Positions 33,578 to 33,945 of a DNA stretch of 64,000 nt are shown here, piece by piece. The translations under genes and the position numbers were made by a program. Within the stretch, counting starts at the first letter, position 1; each line of letters starts with the position of its first letter. Origin of the DNA: Escherichia coli (GTDB taxonomy: Bacteria > Pseudomonadota > Gammaproteobacteria > Enterobacterales > Enterobacteriaceae); NCBI RefSeq assembly GCF_016026235.1, contig NZ_CP065613.1; one strand, given 5' to 3'. Below the pieces are notes generated by a model. That model was not told where the DNA came from and searched no databases. It saw only the letters and a list, made by a program, of their open reading frames with translations.

Positions 33578-33945
33578 GTCGACAGGGAGTCAGACAACGA
33601 AGTGAACATCAGGATGATGACACTTCTGCAGGACACACCAGGATGGTGTTTCAGGGAAAGGCTTCTGGATGAAGCGAAGAGGATGACGCAGGACGCGTTA
33701 AAGGACACCTCCAGGATGGAGAATGAGAACCGGTCAGGATGATTCGGTGGGTCAGGAAGGCTAGGGACACTTCAGGATGAAGTATCACATCGGGGTGGTG
33801 TGAGCAGGAAGCAATAGTTCAGGATGAACGATTGGCCGCAAGGCCAGAGGAAAAGTTGTCAAGGATGAGCAGGGAGCAACAAAAGTAGCTGGAATGCTGC
33901 GAAACGAACCGGGAGCGCTGTGAATACAGTGCTCCCTTTTTTTAT
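33578..33945 (+). ncRNA. csrB: CsrB regulatory RNA (CsrA-sequestering)
   Basis: Begins GTCGACAGGGAGTCAGACAACGAAGTGAACATCAGGATGATG; at least eight AGGATG motifs plus further GGA motifs; ends in the hairpin CGGGAGCGCTGTGAATACAGTGCTCCC followed by a T-run. Confidence 0.95.

Follow-up and report, generated by a model that had tools for sequence, protein, structure and literature searches.

The segment at 33578-33946 on the plus strand of the 64-kb Escherichia coli sequence analysed here (64,000 nucleotides in full; hereafter the window) is almost certainly the csrB gene, and by its sequence would specify the 369-nt non-coding RNA that sequesters CsrA. An Rfam scan of the whole window returned a match to the CsrB family (RF00018) on the plus strand at 33587-33946 that covers the model over its full length (positions 1-356 of 356) and scores 378.5 bits (E = 4.7e-110; gathering score, 71 bits). 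In K-12 MG1655, the ncRNA csrB (b4408, 369 nt) is annotated between yqcC and syd, and alignment of the window copy with b4408 revealed identity at 368 of 369 nucleotides. The entire 621-bp spacer between syd and yqcC aligned without gaps to both K-12 MG1655 and strain E2865, the sole difference being a C-to-T change at 33762; the flanks of csrB within this spacer (210 bp upstream and 42 bp downstream) are identical to those of K-12. Across complete E. coli genomes, the csrB locus was found in 5425 of 5426, nearly always as a single copy. Over 20 kb surrounding csrB, the sequence shares 99.9% identity with E. coli FDAARGOS_943, which marks the window as part of an E. coli (or Shigella) chromosome. 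No result of the analysis spoke against the identification as csrB.

As delimited by the RF00018 match and by identity with b4408, the gene runs from its transcription start through the last base of the U-tract that follows the terminator stem. The +1 position at 33578 follows from the published -183/-182 centre of the UvrY inverted repeat, which lies at 33387-33404 in the window, and it coincides with the annotated 5′ end. An initial annotation of this DNA had likewise placed csrB between syd and yqcC, a claim borne out by the Rfam match, by K-12 identity and by the shared spacer; the Rfam CsrB scan that it named as a check proved strongly positive and full length (378.5 bits). The extent it gave, 33578-33945, was exact at the start and one base short at the end, a trivial discrepancy because the end falls within the terminator U-tract.

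The flanking genes were assigned by protein family. Upstream lies syd (32822-33367, +), encoding the SecY-interacting protein (NCBIfam NF003439, 282.9 bits; Pfam Syd, PF07348), with queF upstream of it in divergent orientation. Downstream lies yqcC (33989-34318, +), identified by its K-12 annotation and by Pfam DUF446 (PF04287, 118.4 bits), while YqcC gave no NCBIfam match; it is followed by truC (34318-35100; NF008321, 496 bits) and then yqcA. The 918-aa barA product is encoded at 40287-43043 (-) and matches the NCBIfam BarA equivalog with 1624 bits. With barA some 6.3 kb downstream of csrB, the 64-kb window holds both this RNA gene and the gene for the kinase that controls it.

Other RNA genes were also detected in the window. 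A full-length Rfam match to the GcvB sRNA occurs at 15201-15406 (-; 199 bits), and three tandem tRNA-Met(CAT) genes at 10418-10715 (-) are consistent with the metZWV initiator tRNA cluster. A match to the candidate sRNA ES036 (CssrF) at 12143-12185 (+) scored 46.5 bits against a gathering score of 37.6 bits; with a length of 43 nt, it may represent only a terminator-like element.

Among regulatory RNAs that act by protein sequestration, CsrB is the founding example, and its identification here is already known, correct and ordinary; the value lies in correct annotation, and no new biology follows from it. The gene is nevertheless routinely left unannotated in RefSeq E. coli genomes and is absent from most automated annotations. 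In all 12 PGAP-annotated E. coli genomes listed, the stretch that matches csrB was devoid of annotated features, and csrB was named only in the curated K-12 record. Recognition of the gene keeps three or four spurious open reading frames (ORFs) from being called hypothetical proteins.

CsrA-binding motifs, fold and the C185U allele

The sequence at 33578-33946 is visibly repetitive and built of CAGGATG-like units. GGA occurs 22 times on the plus strand of csrB and twice on the minus strand, against a mean of 4.5 and a maximum of 12 in other 369-nt segments of the 64-kb sequence, both strands considered. Longer motifs stand out further: csrB contains eight copies of AGGATG, compared with 0.08 in the other segments (maximum 1) and 0.23 in mononucleotide shuffles of the csrB locus, and six copies of CAGGATG, compared with 0.05 and 0.04, respectively. 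The description of this locus in the initial annotation as packed with AGGATG and GGA motifs therefore stands, with 22 GGA and 8 AGGATG far above chance.

The array of 22 GGA motifs, the putative CsrA-binding cores, spans 33586-33914 (+) and equals in number the 22 GGA sites numbered in the CsrB literature (PMC5027483; PMC7652899). Sites 1 to 11 start at 33586, 33612, 33631, 33641, 33655, 33667, 33681, 33691, 33703, 33714 and 33718, and sites 12 to 22 at 33737, 33755, 33765, 33775, 33807, 33822, 33849, 33863, 33873, 33891 and 33912. Structural mapping placed 11 of the 22 in hairpin loops according to the Rfam structure and 12 of 22 according to a local minimum free energy (MFE) fold with a pair span of at most 30. 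Most of the remaining motifs lie in single-stranded linkers; site 11 is paired, and site 22 falls in the terminator stem, as described for the 369-nt RNA with its 22 sites (PMC5027483). The fold of the whole RNA is more stable than that of shuffled sequences (z = -4.15). SELEX experiments have shown that CsrA prefers GGA in the loop of a short hairpin, with the consensus RUACARGGAUGU (PMC7652899), and the loop placement of 11 to 12 GGA motifs fits this preference.

The terminator search identified an intrinsic terminator at 33911-33943 (+), in which the stem GGGAGCGCTGT/ACAGTGCTCCC encloses the loop GAAT and is followed by T7. The stem-loop itself (33911-33936) comprises 11 bp, 7 of them G-C, and a 4-nt loop, in agreement with the strong terminator that had been noted at this end of the locus.

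The single difference from K-12, located by alignment at 33762 (+), is a C-to-T change that corresponds to C185U in the RNA. As a result, G173-C185, the pair that closes the GGA site 13 hairpin, becomes G-U; the change also affects the base lying 3 nt 5′ of GGA site 14, where the C of the SELEX consensus becomes U. The T allele, searched in its exact 61-nt context, was present in 3 of 5417 complete E. coli genomes, and none of the complete genomes carried a csrB identical to that of the window over 369 nt (best, 99.7%).

A functionally altered CsrB, in which this rare allele changes CsrA loading at sites 13 and 14, would be in keeping with the low frequency of T (3/5417), with the departure from the SELEX consensus upstream of site 14, and with the predicted weakening of the site 13 hairpin, which has -4.5 kcal/mol with C185 and -2.5 kcal/mol with U185, a loss of about 2 kcal/mol. 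We nonetheless consider such an effect very unlikely. The G-U wobble keeps the pair, the predicted fold is the same and both GGA motifs are about as likely to be unpaired as in K-12; moreover, G-U occurs at pair 173-185 in 3 of 31 aligned rows, the window included, so that other homologues carry it as well. Only 1 of 22 redundant sites is affected, and CsrC and feedback circuits buffer changes in CsrB (PMC4682653). An inactivated csrB allele was also considered and was rejected, as the pair is kept as G-U and the predicted fold is unchanged. We infer that C185U is functionally neutral.

Control region, decay elements and proposed working of CsrB

DNase I footprinting and ChIP-exo have located the binding of phosphorylated UvrY at E. 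coli csrB to an inverted repeat of 18 nt, TGTGAGAGATCTCTTACA, centred at -183/-182, with a partial repeat, TGTAGGAGA, 5 bp downstream of it (Zere et al. 2015, PMC4682653). The window contains an exact match to the published UvrY-P site at 33387-33404 (centre, -182.5), and the partially conserved extra half-site TGTAGGAGA follows at 33410-33418, with the sequence and the 5-bp spacing of that report. The same study described a putative IHF site between the upstream UvrY site and the csrB promoter, in the interval separating the two UvrY crosslinking regions (PMC4682653). Among the 31 compared sequences, the inverted repeat was recovered in all 31, with 0 to 3 mismatches and a centre at -180.5 to -183.5. 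Between this repeat and the promoter, AATCAAAATGTTG at 33473-33485 (-105 to -93) fits WATCAANNNNTTR, the IHF consensus, and the alignment of upstream regions shows its TCA and GTT columns to be conserved. We therefore propose AATCAAAATGTTG as a putative IHF site, a placement drawn from the sequence.

Conservation and spacing together point to TTGTAA (33543-33548, +) and GATTCT (33566-33571, +) as the probable -35 and -10 elements of csrB. The former matches TTGACA at 4 of 6 positions, lies 17 bp from the -10 and is nearly invariant in the 31 homologues; the latter, part of a conserved GATTCTA block, shares A2 and T6 with TATAAT and stops 6 nt short of +1. The putative IHF site and both promoter elements all fall in blocks conserved across genera. 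A consensus scan of 33300-34050 gave no strong sigma-70 promoter, which fits an activator-dependent promoter.

The elements governing decay of the RNA can be located in the same manner. In K-12, RNase E has to cleave within an unstructured segment immediately 5′ of the terminator, chiefly at A327 and A331; occupancy of GGA sites 20 and 21 by CsrA prevents this cleavage, a protection that CsrD overcomes (Vakulskas et al. 2016, PMC5027483). Under the numbering of that study, and with a sequence equal to that of K-12, sites 20 (33873-33875) and 21 (33891-33893) occupy 33873-33893 (+) in the window. The unstructured RNase E segment maps to 33901-33910 (+), with A327 at 33904 and A331 at 33908, both of which are A in the window; neither the Rfam nor the MFE structure shows any pairing in this stretch. 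Its borders are ours and need not coincide with those of the 9-nt "region A" of PMC5027483. The last 107 nt of csrB are identical to K-12, and the match of the decay module is one of sequence identity.

Expression, CsrA binding and decay of the window csrB are thus assigned by analogy, through its 99.7% identity with K-12, where the relevant experiments were performed. For the K-12 RNA, binding of multiple CsrA dimers and antagonism in vivo are reported (Liu et al. 1997, as cited in PMC7652899; PMC5027483), as are the dependence of csrB transcription on BarA-UvrY and IHF (PMC4682653) and that of CsrB decay on CsrD and RNase E (PMC5027483). By extension, BarA, the sensor kinase, would phosphorylate UvrY, and UvrY-P would bind the 18-nt repeat at -183/-182; IHF would bend the intervening DNA and help UvrY-P to activate the weak sigma-70 csrB promoter. 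Plus-strand transcription would then start at 33578 and end at the intrinsic terminator (33911-33943), giving a 369-nt RNA predicted to form a string of short hairpins with GGA or CAGGAUG loops and further GGA motifs in the linkers. Each GGA element would bind one RNA-binding face of a CsrA dimer, so that one CsrB could hold many dimers; CsrA would thereby be kept off lower-affinity mRNA leaders, relieving CsrA-mediated repression and activation. Removal of CsrB would proceed through the RNase E cut before the terminator, which CsrA at sites 20 and 21 would block and which CsrD, activated by EIIA-Glc under a preferred carbon source, would restore by overcoming the CsrA block.

Homologues and overlapping reading frames

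Homologous loci were sought by scanning the 3′ core AAGGATGAGCAGGGAGCA, an 18-mer, in one genome per species, which yielded 79 loci with 81 pattern matches. A blastn alignment to the window csrB was obtained for 57 of the 81. One of these 57, from an Anaerolineae MAG, aligned over only 30 nt around the pattern and was set aside as a chance match; about 23 further 18-mer matches in unrelated phyla (Cytophagaceae, Bacillota, Actinomycetota and others) showed no additional csrB similarity and were likewise attributed to chance. The remaining blastn-aligned loci are csrB homologues, nearly all from Enterobacterales or unclassified MAGs, and full-length Rfam CsrB matches were found in Citrobacter, Serratia, Erwinia, Pantoea, Izhakiella, Mixta, Edwardsiella and Enterobacillus.

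For comparative analysis, we used 30 homologues that align end to end with the window csrB at 74-99% identity. All 30 share the strand asymmetry of the motif, with 20-28 GGA on the RNA strand versus 1-3 on the other. Wherever their contigs reach, the gene order queF-syd-csrB-yqcC-truC is kept, as seen in Escherichia, Citrobacter, Enterobacter, Kosakonia, Erwinia, Pantoea, Edwardsiella and Enterobacillus.

Covariation was assessed in 31 sequences aligned with MAFFT on sequence alone. The hairpin pairs of the Rfam structure were canonical in 95.7% of cases, compared with 34-54% when their 3′ partners were slid by 1-3 columns, and double compensatory changes affected 14 pairs versus 0-7 in the slid controls, counts that do not represent independent events because the alignment includes close Escherichia rows. 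At pair 174-184, for instance, 17 rows carry G-C and 13 carry A-U, and the terminator pairs show compensatory G-C to A-T changes at two positions in homologues.

The same comparison bears on the ORFs that overlap csrB. The initial annotation had reported two on the minus strand and judged them almost certainly spurious; the same two were recovered at a 60-aa threshold, and lowering the threshold to 30 aa added two more. The four comprise a 62-aa ORF (33520-33708, -), intact in 5 of 30 homologues, all Escherichia; a 45-aa ORF (33651-33788, -), intact in 5 of 30; a 71-aa ORF (33785-34000, -) that runs antisense into the start of yqcC and is intact in 0 of 30; and a 46-aa ORF with a GTG start (33602-33742, +), intact in 6 of 30.

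A coding function, in which one or more of these frames encodes a small protein and the region is a coding or dual-function RNA, can appeal to the existence of the ORFs and to the preservation of three of the four in the closest Escherichia homologues. Such a function is extremely improbable. None of the four matches Pfam or NCBIfam, none is annotated in K-12, and the 71-aa frame is intact in no homologue. Intact cases among the 30 homologues are confined to Escherichia loci at 95-96% nucleotide identity or above, and from E. albertii or Citrobacter outward the ORFs are broken by stops, lost starts and indels that are not multiples of three; the 46-aa ORF loses its start codon and has its frame broken in Citrobacter and beyond. 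The RNA features, in contrast, are conserved where the ORFs are broken. On these grounds, we regard all four as by-products of the sequence and not genes, so that the earlier dismissal of the two longer ones holds, with neither family match nor conserved frame. The 46-aa plus-strand ORF was also compared with YqcG, a protein of the same length, and this identity was rejected, as yqcG adjoins queE (PMC4974570).

It would be of modest interest if C185U changed CsrA loading and shifted Csr output in this lineage or, less likely, if the 46-aa ORF were translated and CsrB were a dual-function RNA in Escherichia, and we hold the prospect of either to be very slim.

Relation to CsrC, RsmB and the Rsm RNAs

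Hairpins with GGA loops, a terminator and a UvrY/GacA box are common to members of the CsrB/RsmB clan, and motifs alone cannot separate them; that the locus is another member, such as CsrC or an RNA of the RsmX/Y/Z type, rather than a csrB orthologue is, however, a negligible prospect, since RF00018 is the best and sole reported hit in clan CL00106 and covers the full model, near-identity to K-12 csrB, the syd-yqcC position and Enterobacterales synteny establish orthology, and the upstream repeat reads TGTGAGAGATCTCTTACA, as in csrB, rather than TGTGAGACATTGCCGATA, as in csrC (PMC4682653). No CsrC model match scored higher, and the locus does not lie between yihA and yihI.

As a csrB gene, the locus is closest to K-12 csrB (b4408). 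Its promoter region, UvrY repeat, flanking genes and terminator are identical to those of b4408, as are its 22 GGA sites and the positions of the RNase E sites; the two differ at RNA position 185, which is C in K-12 and U in the window (33762). CsrC of E. coli, in the same clan (CL00106), resembles CsrB in sequestering CsrA through multiple GGA sites, in its activation by UvrY from a far-upstream repeat and in its decay through CsrD and RNase E (PMC4682653; PMC7652899). It differs in its locus, in its shorter RNA, in its less symmetric repeat, TGTGAGACATTGCCGATA, and in its independence of IHF (PMC4682653).

The RsmB/CsrB RNAs of Erwinia, Pantoea, Edwardsiella and Serratia occupy the syd-yqcC position, give full-length CsrB matches of 203-254 bits and share the 3′ core AAGGATGAGCAGGGAGCA and the terminator with the window, at lengths of 302-345 nt. 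For most of them, blastn aligns only about the last 100 nt to the window csrB, whereas those of Erwinia persicina, Pantoea coffeiphila and Serratia align over up to about 350 nt at 67-69% identity. More distant are RsmX, RsmY and RsmZ of Pseudomonas, which are controlled by GacS/GacA, a two-component system of the BarA/UvrY type. These RNAs resemble CsrB in the GGA-loop sequestration of RsmA/E, proteins of the CsrA family (PMC7652899). Unlike CsrB, they are much shorter, have no CsrD orthologue alongside them and are protected from decay by the protein (PMC5027483); we set them apart by description.

Two of the surveyed loci depart from the usual arrangement. A 797-nt contig from an alphaproteobacterial assembly (NZ_PVBT01000018.1, labelled Phyllobacterium myrsinacearum DSM 5892) carries 6S RNA at 246-429 directly followed by CsrB at 474-797, the latter 98.8% identical to that of E. 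coli. The two genes are not neighbours in E. coli, so the contig most likely stems from contamination or is a chimera. In Enterobacillus tribolii DSM 103736 (NZ_QRAP01000005.1), three full-length CsrB genes lie in tandem within 7700-9299 (7700-8078, 8311-8690 and 8922-9299), each scoring 232-239 bits, with a period of about 610 nt. All three fall in the syd-yqcC spacer, which holds a single csrB in other Enterobacterales, and the array looks like a tandem triplication.
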